Source of the DNA: Pseudomonadota bacterium
GTDB taxonomy: Bacteria; Pseudomonadota; Gammaproteobacteria; Arenicellales; Poriferihabitantaceae
DNA length: 64,000 nucleotides
Assembly (NCBI GenBank): GCA_039029455.1
Contig: JBCCGE010000001.1
Span: 90,136 to 154,135 of the forward strand
Direction: 5' to 3'
The notes below the pieces were generated by a model. It was not told the origin of the DNA, did not search any database, and worked only from the letters and a program-made list of their open reading frames with translations. Shown here one piece after another: positions 34,096 through 64,000 of this stretch. Each line of letters begins with the position of its first letter. Position 1 is the first letter of the stretch. Made by a program: the position numbers and the translations under genes.

Positions 34096-34851
34096 TCAGG
34101 CTGGTGCAGCCGGACCGGGAGGGCCTTTCGGACCAGAAAAACCTGGGTCGCCGCCCAAAATACCGGGCGTACCCTGAGCTCCGGGTTCTCCGACGGGTCC
34201 TGGAGGCCCGGGCTGAAACACTGTTGCTCCCGGAGGGCAGGCGACTCCGGGTGCGCCGGGGGGTCCCGGAAAACCGGGATCACCACCGGGACCTTTTGAG
34301 GCTGCCGTCGACCCGCTCGCACTTAGGTCGTCGCCAGGAATTCCCGGAGGTCCCGGAGGTCCTGGGGGGCCCGGAGGGGCGGCATTTGCACCTGTGTCGC
34401 CGGTAGGACCCCGAGCACCTATTTCGCCCTTTACGCCTGGAAACATTGGGTTTCCACCCACTCCCGGTTGACCGGGAGAGCCCGGAGGTCCCTGGGGTCC
34501 TGGGGAGCCGGTGCAAACCACAGGAGGTTCCGTGGTAGTGGTTGTTACGGTTGTTGTCGGTGCTGCCGTGGTGGTGGTACCGCCGCCGGGCTGACCACCA
34601 CCGCCGGTAGTCTGAGCGTGAGCGGGCAGGACAATCGAGGACACCAGAGGCTTGTTCCAGTGAAGTCCACTGGCGCCTGATGCACCCACCGCGATGATCG
34701 CGGACACCGTTTTTCTCCGACGGTTTGCGGACTCCTGCGGGCTAGGTACGATTTTGTGTGCAGATTGCGATGTGTCAGGAGACTCATTCGCATCTGCAGT
34801 TTTACCGGGATTCCTGATCTCGTCGTTATTGTTCCATTTTTCTTTACTCAT
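34096..34851 (-). CDS. Collagen-like protein 1: twin-arginine-like leader, Thr-rich linker, interrupted Gly-X-Y repeats
   Basis: RRRKTV...[15 protein letters not shown] leader; GSP GPQ GPP..., [27 protein letters not shown]; ATG 34851 chosen. Confidence 0.85.
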
Positions 34852-35017
34852 CTGTAAATCCTCACTTTGGGAACATCTTTGTCTCAAGAGGTTTCATTCT
34901 TATGCGTCAACTTCAGCTCGGGTCGCTGCATTGATGTATAGAATACGACGTTTTGATCATAGCACGATTGGGCGATAAGGTATGATTACGGCCCGATCGC
35001 AATGTGAAATTCGTACT

Positions 35018-35602
35018 ATGTATTCACAACCCCTGTTTCACAATTTCACCGGTGTGATACCCGATGCTGTGTGCGATATCATAGTTGCTGAAGGAGAGTC
35101 ACTGCAGCAACGCAAAGGCACGGTGTACTCTGACGATCAGTTCAAGGTCGACAAGTCCATGCGGGTGACTGATGTTGGATTCTGGGATGAGTGGCATTGG
35201 GTCAACGGATTGATGACGCACTACATGGCAATGGCCAACAGAAGTTTCTGGCAATACGAGCTGGTGGTATCTCAGGGGGTTCAATACGGGTCATACGGTG
35301 TTGGCCATTTTTACGATTGGCATCACGACACGTTTTCGGAACCTATGGTGGATTCCAGCAGTGGCAATCAAACACGGCTCAACCGGTTTTTGAGCGCGTC
35401 ATTGCTATTGTCCGATGAGAACACGTATTCAGGCGGTGAGCTCTGTTTCATGGATCAGGAGGGTCGGACCTACACTGTTGAAGGTGGCCGCACAAAGGGC
35501 AGCATTGTTGTCTTTCCGTCGTCACTGCGCCACAAGGTTACACCGGTAGACAACGGTACCAGGCATTCCTGTGTCTCATGGATTTTGGGGGTCGTAGACT
35601 GA
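35018..35602 (+). CDS. Fe(II)/2OG oxygenase, prolyl-4-hydroxylase/PKHD-like
   Basis: YDWHHD (HxD), YSGGEL, VFPSSLRHKVTPV..GTRHS.VSW; ATG 35018 chosen (track 34982). Confidence 0.85.
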   Translation: MYSQPLFHNFTGVIPDAVCDIIVAEGESLQQRKGTVYSDDQFKVDKSMRVTDVGFWDEWHWVNGLMTHYMAMANRSFWQYELVVSQGVQYGSYGVGHFYDWHHDTFSEPMVDSSSGNQTRLNRFLSASLLLSDENTYSGGELCFMDQEGRTYTVEGGRTKGSIVVFPSSLRHKVTPVDNGTRHSCVSWILGVVD

Positions 35603-35645
35603 ACACCGACACCAGTGGTTTGAACTCAAAATCTTTTGAAAATAA

Positions 35646-37586
35646 TTGACTCAGCCGTTTACAACCTATGTCATTAATCGTGAGGATGCTCACGATCGGT
35701 GGCGTCGCATTGAGTCGGATCTGGGCGAGGTTGGAATTTACCCAACCCGAGTTAATGCGACCCTTGCAGAAAGCATCGATGACTCGTTCATGCGCGATGG
35801 TGAATGCTCCGTCATGCGGAAATGGCTGGATCCTTACACCGGGTTGTTGGTCAATACCGGCGAGATTGCCTGCTTATTGAGTCACCACAGTGTATGGCAG
35901 CAAATCGCAGCATCTGGAACAACCAGCATCGTTTTGGAGGACGATGCGTTGCTCGAAGCAGATTTTAATTCCAGACTGCAAGTCATAGGTCGCCTTCAAG
36001 AACAACACGATCTGGATCTGATCTATCTTGGATACAAACCACTGGGTCCGATCTCTGATCAGCGAGATGGACTTTGTGATCCGGGATACTGTTACTGGAC
36101 TGTGGGCTATATGCTGTCCCCAACCGGCGCGCGAAAACTGCTTGCTACGACCATCCTGAGAAACATACTGCCTGCCGATGAATTTTTGCCGGCGATGTTT
36201 AATCGGCACCCCAACGCACTCGTCCAGCATGTTTTCAAAGATTTTGAAAAACTGGGCGTTCGCGCTGCAGACCCGCCCATCGTACGACCTGACTTCCAGG
36301 TGGAAAGCCAGATCAGTACACAGCCGGAATACGTATATCATTTCATTGTACTGACGGTGGCCTCAGATCCTGACAAGGCTGCGTTGCTCACAGAATCACT
36401 GGATCGATTTTCAGTGCCGTATCGTGTTTTGGGATGCGGGCAGAGCTGGCGAGGCGGCGATATGACCGGCACCGGCGGCGGACAAAAAATAAATCTGCTC
36501 CGGGAAGCTCTGGGTGATCTTGACGACGACACGGTCGTGCTTTTTATGGACGGCTACGACACCCTGGTGAATGCGAACAGCGCATCGCTGCTGCGAATGT
36601 ATGCCAGATACGATCACGACATCGTGTTTGCGGCCGAAAAGTCCTGTTGGCCTGACGGTTCTCTCGCGAGTCAATATCCCGAGTCTCCCACCGAATATCG
36701 ATATCTGAATAGTGGGAGTTTTATCGGCAGCGCCGGTGCATTAAAAAAACTTGCGGCTGAATCCATAGACGACTCTGAGGACGATCAGCTCTACTTCACC
36801 AGAGCGTTTTTGAGTGGCGATCACGATATGGCCGTGGATATCGGTTGTAACCTCTTTCAAACACTGAGTTTTTCCGAAAACGATGTCATCCTGACGGGCC
36901 GCATCATCAAAAATATCATCACTGACACCCTACCTCTCGTGCTTCATGGTAATGGCGGTGAATCGTCCAAGCTGCGGTATCAGGAGATCGGAACCAAACT
37001 GCAGATTGCTGCTCATTATCCACTGTATACCGACCTCTACACCTATGAACGAGCGGCTAACCCTGAAAACATATGGTCAGTGCCATCGCCTGATATTCTC
37101 CAGCTAACATTCTGGACCGACGGATTTTGCCGCCTTCTGATTGAAACCGCAGAGTCTTTAGACGAATGGCAGTCCCTTCCTGGTGATAATGTTCCAGGCC
37201 AGGAGTTGCGGTTGCGGCGCATCAGCGAAAAGCTGTATCAAAATGTCGTTGCCCATTTCGAATGGCGTGTCGTTCCCTGGCTGCAGCAGCACTGGTTGCC
37301 GTATTCGTATTGCGGAATTAAAGATATATTTCTGATCAAATACTCCGCCAGCACTCAGGCTGAATTGGATCTTCACAACGATCGCGCGCACGTGAGTGCC
37401 TCCATCAAACTAAACGACCAGTATCGCGGAGGAGTGCTTGAGTTTCCGCGACAGCAGTTCACGAATCAAAACGTTCCTGTGGGATCGATGATCGTCTGGC
37501 CGTCTTCACTGACACATCCTCATCGATCAACCCCTGTCGAACAGGGCACAAAGTACAGTCTTACGTTCTGGACGCAAGAGCAGTGA
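35646..37586 (+). CDS. Fusion: GT25 (COLGALT-like) + PLOD-type glycosyltransferase + PLOD-type lysyl hydroxylase
   Basis: GEIACLLSH, LEDD, YWTVGYMLS..GARKLL, LPADEFLPAMF (GT25); WRGGDM..GGGQK, FMDGYD, AEKSCWP, YLNSG.FIG, DDQL (PLOD GT); HND...GG..F...THPH...G.KY (LH). Confidence 0.85.
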   Translation: MTQPFTTYVINREDAHDRWRRIESDLGEVGIYPTRVNATLAESIDDSFMRDGECSVMRKWLDPYTGLLVNTGEIACLLSHHSVWQQIAASGTTSIVLEDDALLEADFNSRLQVIGRLQEQHDLDLIYLGYKPLGPISDQRDGLCDPGYCYWTVGYMLSPTGARKLLATTILRNILPADEFLPAMFNRHPNALVQHVFKDFEKLGVRAADPPIVRPDFQVESQISTQPEYVYHFIVLTVASDPDKAALLTESLDRFSVPYRVLGCGQSWRGGDMTGTGGGQKINLLREALGDLDDDTVVLFMDGYDTLVNANSASLLRMYARYDHDIVFAAEKSCWPDGSLASQYPESPTEYRYLNSGSFIGSAGALKKLAAESIDDSEDDQLYFTRAFLSGDHDMAVDIGCNLFQTLSFSENDVILTGRIIKNIITDTLPLVLHGNGGESSKLRYQEIGTKLQIAAHYPLYTDLYTYERAANPENIWSVPSPDILQLTFWTDGFCRLLIETAESLDEWQSLPGDNVPGQELRLRRISEKLYQNVVAHFEWRVVPWLQQHWLPYSYCGIKDIFLIKYSASTQAELDLHNDRAHVSASIKLNDQYRGGVLEFPRQQFTNQNVPVGSMIVWPSSLTHPHRSTPVEQGTKYSLTFWTQEQ

Positions 37587-37883
37587 CGAAACATCCGCTG
37601 AGCATATTCGGTAGCAGGAAATTAATCAGTTTTGACGAGAGATTTCAGAAATTTATGCGGCACTGAAATATAAGGTGGCACGATAACTCCGGAAATTGAC
37701 GAGTGCTGGAAACTCTCTTCTGTCTTCCCAACAGTGATATGAACCGCTGTGCGTTACCTGTGGCAGCGTTTTCCGAAGGTATTTATCCGCGGTCTGTCTC
37801 GCATCCACAATCACTGTCGGGCTGCGGTCGCATTTGTTGTGTTACTCTTAAGAATGATGCGTATCTTGTAGTGAGAGTAAGAA

Positions 37884-38381
37884 ATGGGGAATTCAAACAA
37901 CGGTAAAAAGGCGCTGTTGGGCGGGGGGCAGATTCAGCGTCGAAAAACCGTGACCGCAGTAGTCGGAACCGGCGCTGCTTTAGGCGTTGCCTGGAAAAAA
38001 CCGGTGGTGTCCACGGTAATCTTGCCCGCCCACGCTGCCACAACCGATTCCGGCGGAGATCCCGGCACAGGGGTGACTACGTTGCCACCGGTTACAACAA
38101 CGTTAGCGGTAACAACTTGTCCTCCCGGAGTCCCAGGTAATCCTGGGCCTCCCGGACCCCCGGGAATGCCTGGGGAGACTGGATCTCCGGGGGCGCCTGG
38201 AGCGCCCGGAGGACCCGGTGGACCGGGTTCACCCGGATTACCGGGCCCTCCCGGATCACCTGGTTCTCCACCGCCGGGCTTCCCTGATTGTCCGGCTGGA
38301 CCTCCAGGACCCGCTGGACCTCCCGGACCACCTGGTCCACCGGGACCGCCTGGGCCTCCAGGACCACCGATTACCGACTGA
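37884..38381 (+). CDS. Collagen-like protein 2: twin-arginine-like leader and GPP-rich repeats
   Basis: RRKTV...[15 protein letters not shown] leader; 16 + 8 uninterrupted Gly-X-Y triplets. Confidence 0.85.
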
Positions 38382-38392
38382 TCACTGATCGT

Positions 38393-38424
38393 AAACCGAG
38401 CCGCTCGGGTGGGCGGCTCGGTTT
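38393..38424. terminator. Hairpin between convergent collagen-2 and cyclase genes, probable bidirectional terminator
   Basis: Perfect 12-bp inverted repeat AAACCGAGCCGC / GCGGCTCGGTTT with 8-nt loop. Confidence 0.75.
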
Positions 38425-38496
38425 CTCTCAGTCGTTGTGAATGGGCGTTTAAATGCGTGGATGCCCCAATCGTTCCGACCGGGGTAACGCTGGCTT

Positions 38497-39834
38497 TCAG
38501 CGCGTTTCGGGTTCGAACAGGCTGACAGGTTTCTTGCGACCCCGCAGTACCTCGCTGCCCTTGGCATTGAACACGAATCGGCTGTGGTCACAAAGATCGC
38601 GGGTTCTCTCAGATACCAGAATTGACGTACCGTAATTCTTATTGAGTTGTTCCATTCTCGCCGCGATGTTTACATTATCGCCGTAGACAGTGTAGCTCAG
38701 ACGGTCGTCTGTGCCGACAAAACCGCCCACGACAGTGCCGGTATTGATGCCGATACGGGTTTTCAGTTGAATTCCGGACGAAAAGCGATGAGTCGTCATT
38801 TTGTCCTGAATCTCGATCGCTGCAGTCACTGCGCTGGAGGCGTGGTCATTGTCTTTCGACGGCAGGTTAAAACTGGCAAGAATGGCATCGCCCTGAAACT
38901 GGTTGATGACTCCCTTATTACTCTCGATGGGTTCTGAAATAACGGAAAAATACTCATTTATTGTGGTGATCAACTCGTCGGGTGAAAGTTGCTCGCCCAG
39001 ACTGGTAAACGACACCAGATCAATAAACAGTATCGATGCTTCGCGAGATTCACTTTGAACATCAATCAGAGGGCCTTCTGCGGTCGCAATTCTATCGGCG
39101 ATGCCTTCCGGTACAAAATGAGAGAGGTTTTTAGCGCTACTTTCCTCCACTATTGACTGGATCAGAAGGTGCCGGGCTCGAGCAACCGCAACGGTCAATA
39201 CGGCGGTCACGACCAGAATCGATATGACCTTGTCCATTTCGCCCCCGAGCAGCACTGAATTCGAAGTCAGATACTCGACGTAGTTCCTCGTGATCATGTC
39301 CATCCCGGATTCCCCGGATACCGCGAGAATGACCAACGCCATCCACCCGGTTGCACCGACCAGTCCGGACAGCAGAATAAAGCCCGGTTCGAATCGAAGG
39401 GCGCGTAGCGCGATGAAGATAAAAATATAAAGGAGTGTAGGTGCCTTGAGATAAAACGCAGCGGGCTGCATGTACTGCAAATGAAATGACCAGATCAATC
39501 CAAGCAGCAGACCCATATCGACCAGAACAGACACCACCAGAAACCAGAACGGCAGGCTGTTTCGATACGCCAGGATCAGTCGCAGGCAGGTAAATAGAAA
39601 ATACGCACCGAGAAACAGAGGAACCGGCTCGAACTCAGCGCCTGTGGGGATGGTTTTTGGCGCTGTAATATACAGCGCAGCAAAGGTGGTAAGGATTGCA
39701 ATCTGAATCCAGCCAATAAGACGTTCACTGCTGTCCTGTTGTTGCTTGATCGAACTACGAATGGATTCCGGTAAGGCGTTATAGTCCTTGCCGCTGGACA
39801 GCCAGGTGTGTTGAGATTTTATAAATTTAGACAT
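38497..39834 (-). CDS. Membrane-bound class III adenylate/guanylate cyclase
   Basis: About six TM segments, then [41 protein letters not shown]. Confidence 0.9.
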
Positions 39835-40387
39835 TATCTAATCCCGTTCAGAAACTGCAGGACTGCACAGTTCGCGAAGAATCAACCCTAAAATTCATTT
39901 TGCCCCACATCCCGAGGTAACCGACTTTACTGGCGTAGGGAATCATTCCCGGTTGCACACTGTAGTGCAACCCCCGTCAACCCGAAAGGTTTGTGATTAT
40001 GATCGCGATTAGATCGAAAAGTTTTGTCAATTTTATGTTTTGAACGGCCCGGTTCGGTCGATTTTTGAATCTAAGGAGACTGTTGGCAAAAAACCACTAT
40101 GGCTTTTCGAATGAAATTTGGTTTTATGCAATGCGTCGATACCCACATATGCCGGCACAGGTGTCATGAAAACATTCGCGCGAGCCATGTTGCACTCTTG
40201 ATTGTCGTATTGGCCGATTTGGTCAGTAAAGTTTCTAGAGTTGCCTACAACAATCCATTGAGTCGGATTACCAGTTATGCTGCGCCGTCTTTTCCGGTTC
40301 AAATAAATATGTCCCGGTTTTCTCAAAGATCGCCTCTCAAAAGGGCGCTATACTGCCCAGGCAAATCAAACAGTGAGGGCGAGACGA

Positions 40388-40867
40388 ATGAGTAAATCCA
40401 AAAGAACACTTCTTAAATCGGCATCGATCATGGGTGCCGGTGGGTTGGTTGCAAGCTGGCAGACGCCGGTGGTTCAGTCGGTTGTACTGCCGGCTCATGC
40501 ACAGACCACTGATCCGACAGCAACAACCACACCAGCACTGCCGGCGGCACCACTGGCTTTTTCACAGCAGGGGGCTATCTGCACCTCACTGTGTGCGATA
40601 GGCGTGGATGACGCGCAATACAATACACCGGTTCTGGAAAATCAGTCGGCTGAATCGATCACGGTTACAGGGATTCAGTTGTCGAATCCGGATCACTATG
40701 TTGAAACCATGCTGCCGCTCATGATTTCGAGCGCCGATAACGTCATTTGCGGATTCTCTATTCTGGTCAAAGATTCGGGAAATCTGTGCGGTGATGCCAT
40801 CTCTGGCGGGACTATGACATTGCAGCTCGAAGGCTATCAGGACTTTTCCTTCAATATCCCGGCTTAA
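40388..40867 (+). CDS. Hypothetical exported protein sharing the collagen-type leader
   Basis: KRTLLK...[18 protein letters not shown], Thr/Pro linker, four Cys, beta-rich body; ATG 40388 chosen. Confidence 0.75.
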   Translation: MSKSKRTLLKSASIMGAGGLVASWQTPVVQSVVLPAHAQTTDPTATTTPALPAAPLAFSQQGAICTSLCAIGVDDAQYNTPVLENQSAESITVTGIQLSNPDHYVETMLPLMISSADNVICGFSILVKDSGNLCGDAISGGTMTLQLEGYQDFSFNIPA

Positions 40868-40930
40868 TCACTGTCTGATGGCGCGTACTCGGAGACAGCT
40901 CATTCGATATGCGATCAGAACACCTTAAGG

Positions 40931-41065
40931 CAGGCAAAATTGTCGGACAGGGTTGCTGATTACAGCTTCTCTATTTCTGCGACCAATGAAGACGCAATTC
41001 GTTCGGCCCGTAAGATGCAGTCACCACCAAACAGATTGGCGTGGTTGAGGATGTGGTATAGCGTG
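40931..41065. repeat. Diverged copy of the 3' end of the fructosamine kinase gene (direct repeat, copy 1)
   Basis: 135-bp near-identity to 41756-41890, including a long identical core gctgattacagc...ttcgttcggcc. Confidence 0.9.
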
Positions 41066-41099
41066 CAACGTTAAATAAATCCGTCCCGGTTTTTTCATA

Positions 41100-41651
41100 T
41101 CAGGTACTTAGAACTCTTTTGAATGCCAGTTTAAAAAAATCCTGACTTGCCAGGTGGATGCAATCGATTTCCAATGGCTGAGTCAATTCAATACGAGTCT
41201 CTTCAGAACCTTCGTTTGCTGGGGTAAATCCGATAATTACTGGTTCTATTTGTACATTTCTTGGGTCGAGTGCTGGGTAGGTTGTGGTGACGCTTACGCT
41301 AAAAGACGCCGAATAGGTGCCCGACTCTGTAGTTACCTCGCCATCATAGGTACCCCCCAGACACCCCAACTGAGATACGGGCGTATTAAACACGCCCGAA
41401 AAATCCGATCGTAAGAACTCAACTGATGCATCGAGACCACTAAACCGGGGATCTCCGGCGATTGAAACCGCAACTGAGTACGATAATCCATCTGGCAGAG
41501 TCGTTTCATACACGGAATAGTTACAGAGAACATCCAAAGTAATACAGAGTGGCGTGAGTGCAGCGTGGGTGGGAAGCTGGATGGCTGCAACTATTGGAGG
41601 CGTCCATACAGAGATTGAAAGTGCTTTCGTGATTAGCCTTCGATCCATCAC
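41100..41651 (-). CDS. Hypothetical exported protein with a shortened version of the same leader
   Basis: DRRLITK...WTPPIVAAIQLPTHAALT; beta-rich Ser/Thr body with Cys. Confidence 0.7.
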   Translation of the reverse strand: MMDRRLITKALSISVWTPPIVAAIQLPTHAALTPLCITLDVLCNYSVYETTLPDGLSYSVAVSIAGDPRFSGLDASVEFLRSDFSGVFNTPVSQLGCLGGTYDGEVTTESGTYSASFSVSVTTTYPALDPRNVQIEPVIIGFTPANEGSEETRIELTQPLEIDCIHLASQDFFKLAFKRVLST

Positions 41652-63744: not shown

Positions 63745-64000
63745 TCAGATACAGCTGTTGCCGGAGGATACGATCGAAGCAATGTTGGGTCGAATATTTC
63801 CATAAATATCACCATCGGTACCCCTGAATCCGAGACCGGTTTCAGAATCCGGCAATCCCGACACATCAACAGTCAAATCGTAATTTATGGTCTCACCAGG
63901 CGCCACAAGCCCTACGGTGATGTCGTTGGCGATTACCGAAAATTCGGGAGGTACGATTACCCCGGGCACGGTCCACAGCTGGAAATCATTCATGACCTGA
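63745..64000 (-). CDS. 3' end of an unidentified gene (beta-sandwich-like), truncated by window end
   Basis: Open frame to the window edge, protein-like composition (ITVGLVAPGETINYDLTV). Confidence 0.45.
   Translation of the reverse strand, partial: QVMNDFQLWTVPGVIVPPEFSVIANDITVGLVAPGETINYDLTVDVSGLPDSETGLGFRGTDGDIYGNIRPNIASIVSSGNSCI

Follow-up and report, generated by a model that had tools for sequence, protein, structure and literature searches.

A candidate RRE-docking block inside the Tat-like leaders of unrelated, putatively exported proteins from Arenicellales and Desulfobulbales

Why would proteins whose mature parts have nothing in common carry the same 15-residue block in their leaders? 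The question is raised by a 64,000-nucleotide stretch of DNA (the window; GenBank assembly GCA_039029455.1, contig JBCCGE010000001.1, positions 90,136 to 154,135 of the forward strand) from a bacterium of the Poriferihabitantaceae (Gammaproteobacteria; Arenicellales), in which four open reading frames (ORFs) begin with a leader that resembles a twin-arginine translocation (Tat) signal and contains the block W-x-x-P-x-V-x-x-x-x-L-P-[AT]-H-A. The original prediction, made from the letters of the window, saw four paralogous proteins and took the block for a recognition or trimerisation element. We consider it probable, though well short of certain, that the block constitutes the central module of a composite cleavable leader, in which a Tat-type signal would hold an embedded docking site for recognition elements of peptides that ribosomes make and that are then modified post-translationally (RiPP recognition elements, RREs) and so mark proteins for cytoplasmic tailoring before export.

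The motif itself is real. All four predicted ORFs exist, and an alignment of their N-termini runs from RR or KR through a Gly/Ala-rich stretch into the block (Table 1), within which W, P, V, L, P, H and A are invariant. The N-terminus of 40388-40867 (+) reads MSKSKRTLLK...WQTPVVQSVVLPAHA and continues with QTT, and that of 41100-41648 (-) reads MDRRLITKALSISVWTPPIVAAIQLPTHA and continues with ALT. The latter scores lowest against the leader profile (32.6 bits); only about 10 residues separate its RR from the W that follows, and its block doubles as the hydrophobic region. As predicted, two mature regions are collagen-like, with Pfam Collagen repeats in 34096-34851 and 37884-38381. The mature part of 40388-40867 has no Pfam or NCBIfam match, and a search for full-length homologues found none; a Pfam scan of the 41100-41648 protein likewise gives no match. 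Because homology is limited to the leaders, the four proteins are not paralogues as wholes, contrary to the original prediction.

The genome has about 53 leader-bearing genes, of which those for the window proteins are a local sample. The six-frame translation of this 3.7-Mb genome contains the pattern W..P.[VIL]....[LIVMF]P.HA 52 times and the reversed pattern not once, a frequency far above chance, and every real copy is an ORF N-terminus downstream of RR or KR. A hidden Markov model (HMM) of the leader, a search that the original prediction had proposed, finds 53 ORFs in the source genome (54 matches in a separate multi-genome search), and the cargo is unrelated: the mature parts of 49 leader-bearing proteins fall into 37 BLAST clusters, span 17-298 aa (median 155) and usually contain 2 or 4 Cys. 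In public data, a profile of 38 leaders matched 4,959 of 1.84 billion cluster representatives with E<=1e-3, 1,353 of them with E<=1e-10; every match lies at the N-terminus, in proteins of 58-345 aa. Among the best 150 matches, RR or KR lies upstream in 150 and TT or TS follows at +2/+3 in 144, and only one carries collagen-like cargo. The leader family thus has thousands of members, yet there is no Pfam or NCBIfam model for it.

The leader consensus is [SDN]-R-R-K-x-L-K, about 18 Gly/Ala/Val/Thr-rich residues, W-x-K-P-V-[VI]-x-S-V-x-L-P-A-H-A and then x-[TS]-[TS], often running on in the source genome as D-S-G-G-D-x-G-x-G-T-T. Four parts can be told apart: a Tat-like n/h-region, the 15-residue insert, the A-H-A signal-peptidase site, and the conserved Thr/Ser at +2/+3. 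Counted from the A-H-A site, W lies at -15, P at -12 and V or I at -10 in all copies of the source genome, where the residue at +3 is T or S in 52 of 52 copies and that at +2 in 49. Across 38 aligned copies the second residue of the twin-arginine pair never varies, and the first can be either R or K. The n-region consensus RRKxLK resembles the Tat motif RRxFLK (S/T-R-R-x-F-L-K), and the mean Kyte-Doolittle hydropathy of the h-region is 0.94, against 0.75 for the ordinary Tat signals of the genome. In those ordinary signals, for example SRRNFLKTAAAGAGAAAVAPMSAPVFA, the block is absent and AxA is reached 22-28 residues after RR, compared with a median of 33 in the leader copies; the block can therefore be described as a 15-residue insert in a Tat-like signal. 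The Tat/signal-peptidase-I layout with an extra block was thus correctly read from the letters and, judged against these signals, the block is not a habit of the lineage's signals in general. In a short subclass, which includes the 41100-41648 protein and the gene straddling the window end, RR lies 5-11 residues before W and Lys is missing at -13; such copies must rely on the block itself for their hydrophobic region.

The block has a counterpart in RiPP leaders. Discrete RREs of systems for lasso peptides and linear polyphosphorylated peptides (LPP) bind [Y/W]xxPx[L/V/I/F/A], and in the crystal complex of PbaB1 the residues W-15, P-12 and L-10 of PbaA occupy the RRE pockets (PMC13381572). The W-15, P-12 and V-10 of the leader stand in the same register. 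Further, the LPP kinase phosphorylates Ser3 of the core (PMC13381572). Among solved structures, a profile of RREs from the cassettes described below matches LppB best (9x8z_B, 9.4e-8), followed by PqqD, PbaB1, TbiB1 and TfuB1.

The source genome encodes one cassette of a discrete PqqD-type RRE, an HprK-related kinase and an NTP_transf_5 nucleotidyltransferase (PF14907, 8e-41), and the distribution of its components follows that of the leader. The leader is patchy in Arenicellales, occurring in 17 of 41 sampled genomes with 1-54 copies each. A PqqD-type RRE is present in 17/17 leader genomes and 3/24 others (p=7.5e-9), NTP_transf_5 in 17/17 and 4/24 (p=4.7e-8) and the cassette kinase in 16/17 and 2/24 (p=2.3e-8); these p values, like the next, ignore shared ancestry, and the two phyla agree. 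Among 81 Desulfobulbales genomes the leader occurs in four, and full-length kinase matches of at least 144 bits are found in exactly those four and in 0/77 others (p=6e-7); weaker matches in eight other genomes belong to other HprK-related subfamilies. In all four leader genomes of this order the kinase and a leader gene share a contig, 0.5-7 kb apart.

Physical linkage points in the same direction. Leader genes directly adjoin the cassette at L001, L003, L027, L053, L055, L059, L089 and L116, in the arrangements given in Table 1. In relatives, at least 16 of 68 RRE matches have a leader gene no more than 10 kb away, and RRE domains fused to glycosyltransferases (GTs) or other enzymes are found next to or near leader genes. 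We also scanned DNA with a degenerate pattern, one genome per species, and obtained at least 112 loci. LPAHA is conserved in these loci by design, because the pattern fixes it; the RR n-region and the h-region were left free, and the RR n-region is nonetheless present in nearly all loci. Among the matches listed, an RRE, kinase or NTP_transf_5 gene lies in 14 of 112 8-kb loci. Other leader genes are flanked by genes for GT1, sulfotransferase and GlcNAc-transferase, and the cargo beside cassettes is often Ser/Thr-rich and mucin-like. A link of the block to modifying enzymes, which the original prediction had anticipated, is thus supported by co-occurrence (RRE 17/17 vs 3/24, kinase 4/4 vs 0/77) and by gene adjacency.

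The cassette kinase is a 279-aa P-loop protein whose best family match is TIGR04352, HprK-related kinase A (5.5e-26 in the source genome; 5.5e-26 to 6.8e-31 among cassette kinases). Scores of 91-107 bits fall below the TIGR04352 cut-off of 200, so the cassette kinases form a different subfamily. A single-sequence search of the PDB with the kinase found no match and a profile search was needed; the family profile matches HPr kinase structures (1ko7). The source genome has three PqqD matches above cut-off, and two further RRE-related genes on other contigs are listed in Table 1. A search beside the cassettes of the source genome and G006 for small precursor ORFs with [YW]xxP yielded only spurious ORFs. 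The RRE, kinase and NTP transferase have no signal peptides and hence act in the cytoplasm.

Taken together, these features suggest a leader of three modules. [RK]R-K-x-L-K with its Gly/Ala-rich stretch of about 18 residues would be a twin-arginine-type export signal; W-15 x K P-12 V V-10 x S V x L P would be the docking site for PqqD-type RREs; and A-H-A followed by x-[TS]-[TS] would be a signal-peptidase-I site and hydroxyl residues that probably receive a modification. A cytoplasmic RRE, either free as in the source genome's cassette or fused to a glycosyltransferase, would bind the W..P.V strand and present the precursor to tailoring enzymes, with the kinase and nucleotidyltransferase acting on every client and glycosyl- or sulfotransferases or a P450 on subsets. 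The two collagens of the window would receive the adjacent prolyl-4-hydroxylase (P4H)-like and PLOD-like enzymes. The finished and possibly folded protein would then be exported, most likely by Tat, and the leader removed after A-H-A. Direct RRE binding, chemistry at +2/+3, the Tat route and cleavage are what we infer. A more specific version is possible but distinctly tentative: the PqqD-fold RRE may act as a proofreading chaperone on special Tat signals, holding up to about 50 secretory proteins per genome until the kinase and nucleotidyltransferase mark Thr/Ser at +2/+3 and client enzymes add glycosylation, sulfation or collagen hydroxylation and glycosylation, with the mark gating release, Tat transport and cleavage.

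Regarding export, the RR motif, the mild hydropathy of the h-region and the AxA site fit Tat, and a Tat rather than a Sec route is most likely on these features. A comparison of two genomes supports a Tat role for the first module: G039 has the leader on a Gluconate_2-dh3 subunit, with a GMC oxidoreductase that lacks a signal coming next, and the homologous pair of the source genome uses a plain Tat signal. The same pair stands in or beside the RRE-kinase cassette in two genera (L001:1079-4262 and L003:2419-4583), with the leader fused to the small subunit in one, and could be a client or a tailoring oxidase. In two Desulfobulbaceae loci (L027:433-1735 and L059:618-1157), Thr-rich leader genes are directly followed by genes for DUF192 and a membrane-anchored S26 signal peptidase, which lie opposite the NTP_transf_5-RRE-kinase genes; the peptidase could be a dedicated leader peptidase. 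A bacterial-type S26 peptidase beside leader genes was found only in Desulfobulbaceae loci. The source genome has a housekeeping LepB next to LepA and one weak S26 match, which is not near any leader gene.

Several observations weigh against an RRE-docking leader exported by Tat. The three-position motif is short, and its register match could reflect convergent constraints. TatC, present in the source genome and in 39 of 41 relatives, is nearly universal in the order and does not discriminate. The leader has no NCBIfam or Pfam match at E<=1, including no signal model; as to a Tat model this is weak evidence because HMMER filters easily lose short signal models. The shared ancestry that the p values ignore counts here as well. 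One genome (G020) has nine leader genes and RREs and no cassette kinase was found in it, and two others (G030 and G031) have the cassette and no detectable leader. The P4H-like and PLOD-like enzymes of the window contain no RRE domain. In addition, a Pfam tally of 148 leader-gene neighbours in the source genome gave mostly housekeeping genes, with a minority near tailoring enzymes, and blastp clustering of the neighbours there revealed almost no recurrent families. The idea that every leader gene lies in a tailoring cluster was rejected on this ground; the common partner, the RRE, must therefore be assumed to act in trans.

Such neighbourhoods would suit a Tat or Sec signal of a lineage-specific form that makes no contact with an RRE, for example one whose extended c-region is adapted to the translocase or signal peptidase. 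In that case the cassette would modify mature proteins, or both traits would simply travel together. The unrelated cargo, the AxA site directly after the block and the dedicated S26 peptidase adjoining leader genes in Desulfobulbaceae are also in keeping with this explanation. It does not account well for the ordinary Tat signals of the same genome, which lack the block, for the exact register with the RRE motif, for transferase-fused RRE domains right beside leader genes, or for the finding that the leader never occurs without an RRE gene among 122 genomes of two phyla. A plain sorting signal of this kind was downgraded after the RRE tests, and we regard it as rather unlikely.

A sorting signal could instead be read in the periplasm after translocation, by a dedicated signal peptidase, DUF192 or an outer-membrane secretion step, and deliver the cargo to the surface or medium. 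The usually even Cys number of the mature parts, as in exported proteins, and the S26 peptidase and DUF192 genes adjoining leader genes in L027 and L059 speak for it. The dedicated peptidase is confined to one lineage, however, and the universally co-occurring RRE, kinase and NTP transferase are cytoplasmic by their lack of signal peptides, which makes this account improbable, more so than the previous one. Least credible, to the point of being very improbable, is a trimerisation or registration element or a tag for co-assembly of collagen stalks with variable heads. Two of the four window carriers are collagen-like and stand beside collagen-modifying enzymes, but a registration element would be retained in the mature protein on collagen-specific cargo, and the block lies upstream of the predicted cleavage site on 37 unrelated cargo clusters, with collagen-like cargo in 1 of the best 150 carriers. 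Also, collagen and PLOD clusters in leader-free relatives use other N-termini. Of the functions first proposed for the block, then, RiPP-leader-like recognition is strengthened by the in-register motif and the co-occurrence of RREs, whereas trimerisation, collagen registration and the joining of stalks to heads find no backing.

If the block is an RRE-docking site, its closest relatives would include the LPP system of Bacillota with its RRE LppB (Popov et al., Nat Commun 2026, PMC13381572; PDB 9x8z). Both have a discrete PqqD-type RRE, an HprK-like kinase and an NTP transferase; a conserved N-terminal leader with [Y/W]xxPxV and variable C-termini (35-200 aa in LPP); removal of the leader by a signal-peptidase-I-type enzyme (here predicted); and, at position 3 of the core, a hydroxyl residue, which in LPP is where phosphorylation occurs. 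In contrast, the leader described here is of the W type rather than the Y type and ends in LPAHA instead of HQxIxFETxxS; the LPP consensus YxxPxVLxHQxIxFETxxS and W.KPVV.SV.LPAHA have only xxPxV in common. Here an RR-containing, signal-peptide-like n/h-region precedes the motif, up to 54 precursors are scattered over a genome (1-3 within the cluster in LPP), RREs are also fused to glycosyltransferases, and the hosts are Gram-negative (Arenicellales, other Gammaproteobacteria, Desulfobulbales). Neither an archaeal-type SipW-like SpI peptidase nor an MsbA-like exporter was seen beside the cassettes.

Similarly, paeninodin-like lasso leaders and their PbaB1 (PDB 9x90) share WxxPx[L/V] with W at -15, P at -12 and an aliphatic residue at -10 from the cleavage site, and use an HprK-like kinase and a nucleotidyltransferase as tailoring enzymes. 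They differ in cargo (cores of about 20 aa, here proteins of 100-300 aa) and cleavage site (penultimate Thr, here AxA). The loci and neighbourhoods examined showed no lasso cyclase or B2 cysteine peptidase, the whole genome not having been searched for them. By sequence comparison, the system resembles leader recognition of the LPP/paeninodin type, adds a Tat-like signal and departs from LPP in two features, the SipW-type peptidase with exporter and the Y-type consensus.

The Tat proofreading chaperones TorD, DmsD and NapD bind signal peptides in the cytoplasm until maturation of the cargo ends. The leader shares with their substrates the twin-arginine n-region, the weakly hydrophobic h-region and AxA, and the concept of a cytoplasmic binder. 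Unlike TorD and NapD, the putative binder here is a PqqD-fold RRE and its site a separate conserved 15-residue insert, and maturation would be covalent tailoring, not cofactor insertion. Literature searches on Tat with RREs, on HprK-related kinases and on an HprK/lasso system in Proteobacteria found no published description, and one on the TIGR04352 system found no paper.

The collagen cluster is best seen, on present comparisons, as two clients among about 50. A P4H-like and a PLOD-like enzyme sit between the two collagen-like genes, and the former is likely a cytoplasmic tailoring enzyme for the adjacent collagens. Since these enzymes are without signal peptides, modification must precede export. 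They probably recognise Gly-X-Y repeats directly. PLOD-GT homologues occur in only five of 41 relatives, of which two (G002 and G014) are leader-free; the G011 homologue carries an RRE domain, and the G002 homologue adjoins collagen-like genes with a different N-terminus. A specific link of the leader to collagen enzymes is therefore not upheld: such clusters exist in leader-free relatives, and the window enzymes lack an RRE. The leader would keep the collagens in the cytoplasm, where Fe/2-oxoglutarate (2OG) and UDP-sugar enzymes act, and then send them out.

Were RRE docking confirmed, RiPP-style leader recognition would extend beyond small peptides to a whole secretome, as a general tailoring tag for exported proteins. 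The leader family offers a candidate substrate class for the orphan Gram-negative cassette of RRE, HprK-related kinase and NTP_transf_5. It also suggests how cytoplasmically modified proteins, such as hydroxylated and glycosylated collagen or mucin-like Ser/Thr-rich proteins, are held back and then exported, and would provide a route for exporting cytoplasmically matured animal-like collagen in bacteria related to sponge symbionts. The range covers sponge-associated Arenicellales, other Gammaproteobacteria and Desulfobulbales including cable bacteria. Hosts among the matches listed include Arenicellales (Arenicella, Ca. Poriferihabitaceae, Ca. Spongiihabitans), other Gammaproteobacteria and, within the Desulfobulbaceae, Ca. 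Electrothrix, Ca. Electronema and the cultured Desulforhopalus singaporensis DSM 12130. The latter has 10 precursors, and one closed Arenicellales genome (G006) has a single cassette and a single precursor.

Table 1. Positions of leader-bearing genes, tailoring enzymes and RRE-containing loci. Plain numbers are window positions; C and L denote our labels for contigs of the source genome and for loci around leader genes. NTP5, NTP_transf_5.
Feature	Position	Strand	Details
Collagen-like precursor 1	34096..34851	-	251 aa from ATG; PF01391 Collagen; longest ORF runs to 34887
Precursor 1 leader	34615-34851 (residues 1-79)	-	RRRK at residue 44
Precursor 1 block, W..P.V....LPAHA	34615-34659	-	then predicted cleavage, then QTT
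P4H-like 2OG-Fe(II) oxygenase	34982..35602	+	PF13640, E 8e-16; no signal peptide, no RRE domain
GT25 + PLOD-GT + 2OG oxygenase fusion	35646..37586	+	646 aa; PF25342 2.6e-60, PF01755, PF13640; no signal peptide, no RRE
Collagen-like precursor 2	37884..38381	+	165 aa; Pfam Collagen repeats
Precursor 2 leader	37884-38036	+	RR at residues 19-20; block 37992-38036, then ATT
Orphan precursor	40388..40867	+	159 aa; leader 40388-40501, KR variant; block 40457-40501, then QTT
Orphan precursor, short leader form	41100..41648	-	182 aa; leader 41562-41648; block 41562-41606
Fifth leader-bearing gene, 3' part	63745..64000 (genome C1:153880-154398)	-	leader just past window end
Second discrete PqqD-type RRE	C1:154752-155084		close upstream of the leader gene straddling the window end (next real gene)
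Cassette	C54:4363-6695		discrete PqqD RRE (E 3.5e-13), HprK-related kinase, NTP5
RRE-GT2 fusion	contig C68		source genome
GT25 protein	contig C8		source genome; weak sub-threshold RRE-like N-terminus
NTP5-RRE-kinase-RRE-leader	L001
Four tandem leader genes between RRE-kinase pair and NTP5	L003
NTP5-RRE-kinase-leader, one operon	L053; L089		Luminiphilus (L089)
Leader genes divergent from cassette	L027, L055, L059, L116		first three identified as Desulfobulbaceae, L116 not identified
RRE-GT2-GT25 fusion	L004		near leader gene
RRE fusion	L005		319 aa; near leader gene
Pyruvyltransferase-RRE fusion	L104		near leader gene
PLOD-GT-RRE fusion	L129		921 aa; four tandem leader genes about 7 kb away

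Some smaller observations concern the leader genes and their surroundings. Several leader genes lie a few hundred bases from contig ends (C38, C58, C67, C78, C129 and C137), and near-identical leader paralogues occur (C38_236, C38_1110 and C76_1607). Repeated leader DNA may break the assembly, and the true copy number could then be higher. A second tailoring cluster (63745-64000 and beyond; C1:151541-165006, L010/L133) begins at the end of the window and comprises a leader gene, a discrete RRE, GT1/GT4, a 164-aa ORF, a P450 and a TPR-sulfotransferase, along with a further pair of leader genes. In Ca. Spongiihabitans (G011, L129:516-1870), four tandem short Pro/Ser/Thr-rich precursors carry a variant leader, WDKPTLESVILPAHG followed by RSS, and large unannotated enzymes are also encoded nearby, as is the PLOD-GT-RRE fusion. 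The cable bacteria Ca. Electronema sp. PJ and Ca. Electrothrix sp. YB6 (L022 and L083) have one or two leader genes beside HprK-related kinase fusions of about 600 aa. Between collagen-like precursor 2 and the orphan precursor, the window encodes a multi-pass membrane protein with an adenylate/guanylate cyclase domain (38497-39834, -); BLAST shows it to be homologous to another cyclase-domain protein encoded next to a leader gene (C7_7452).

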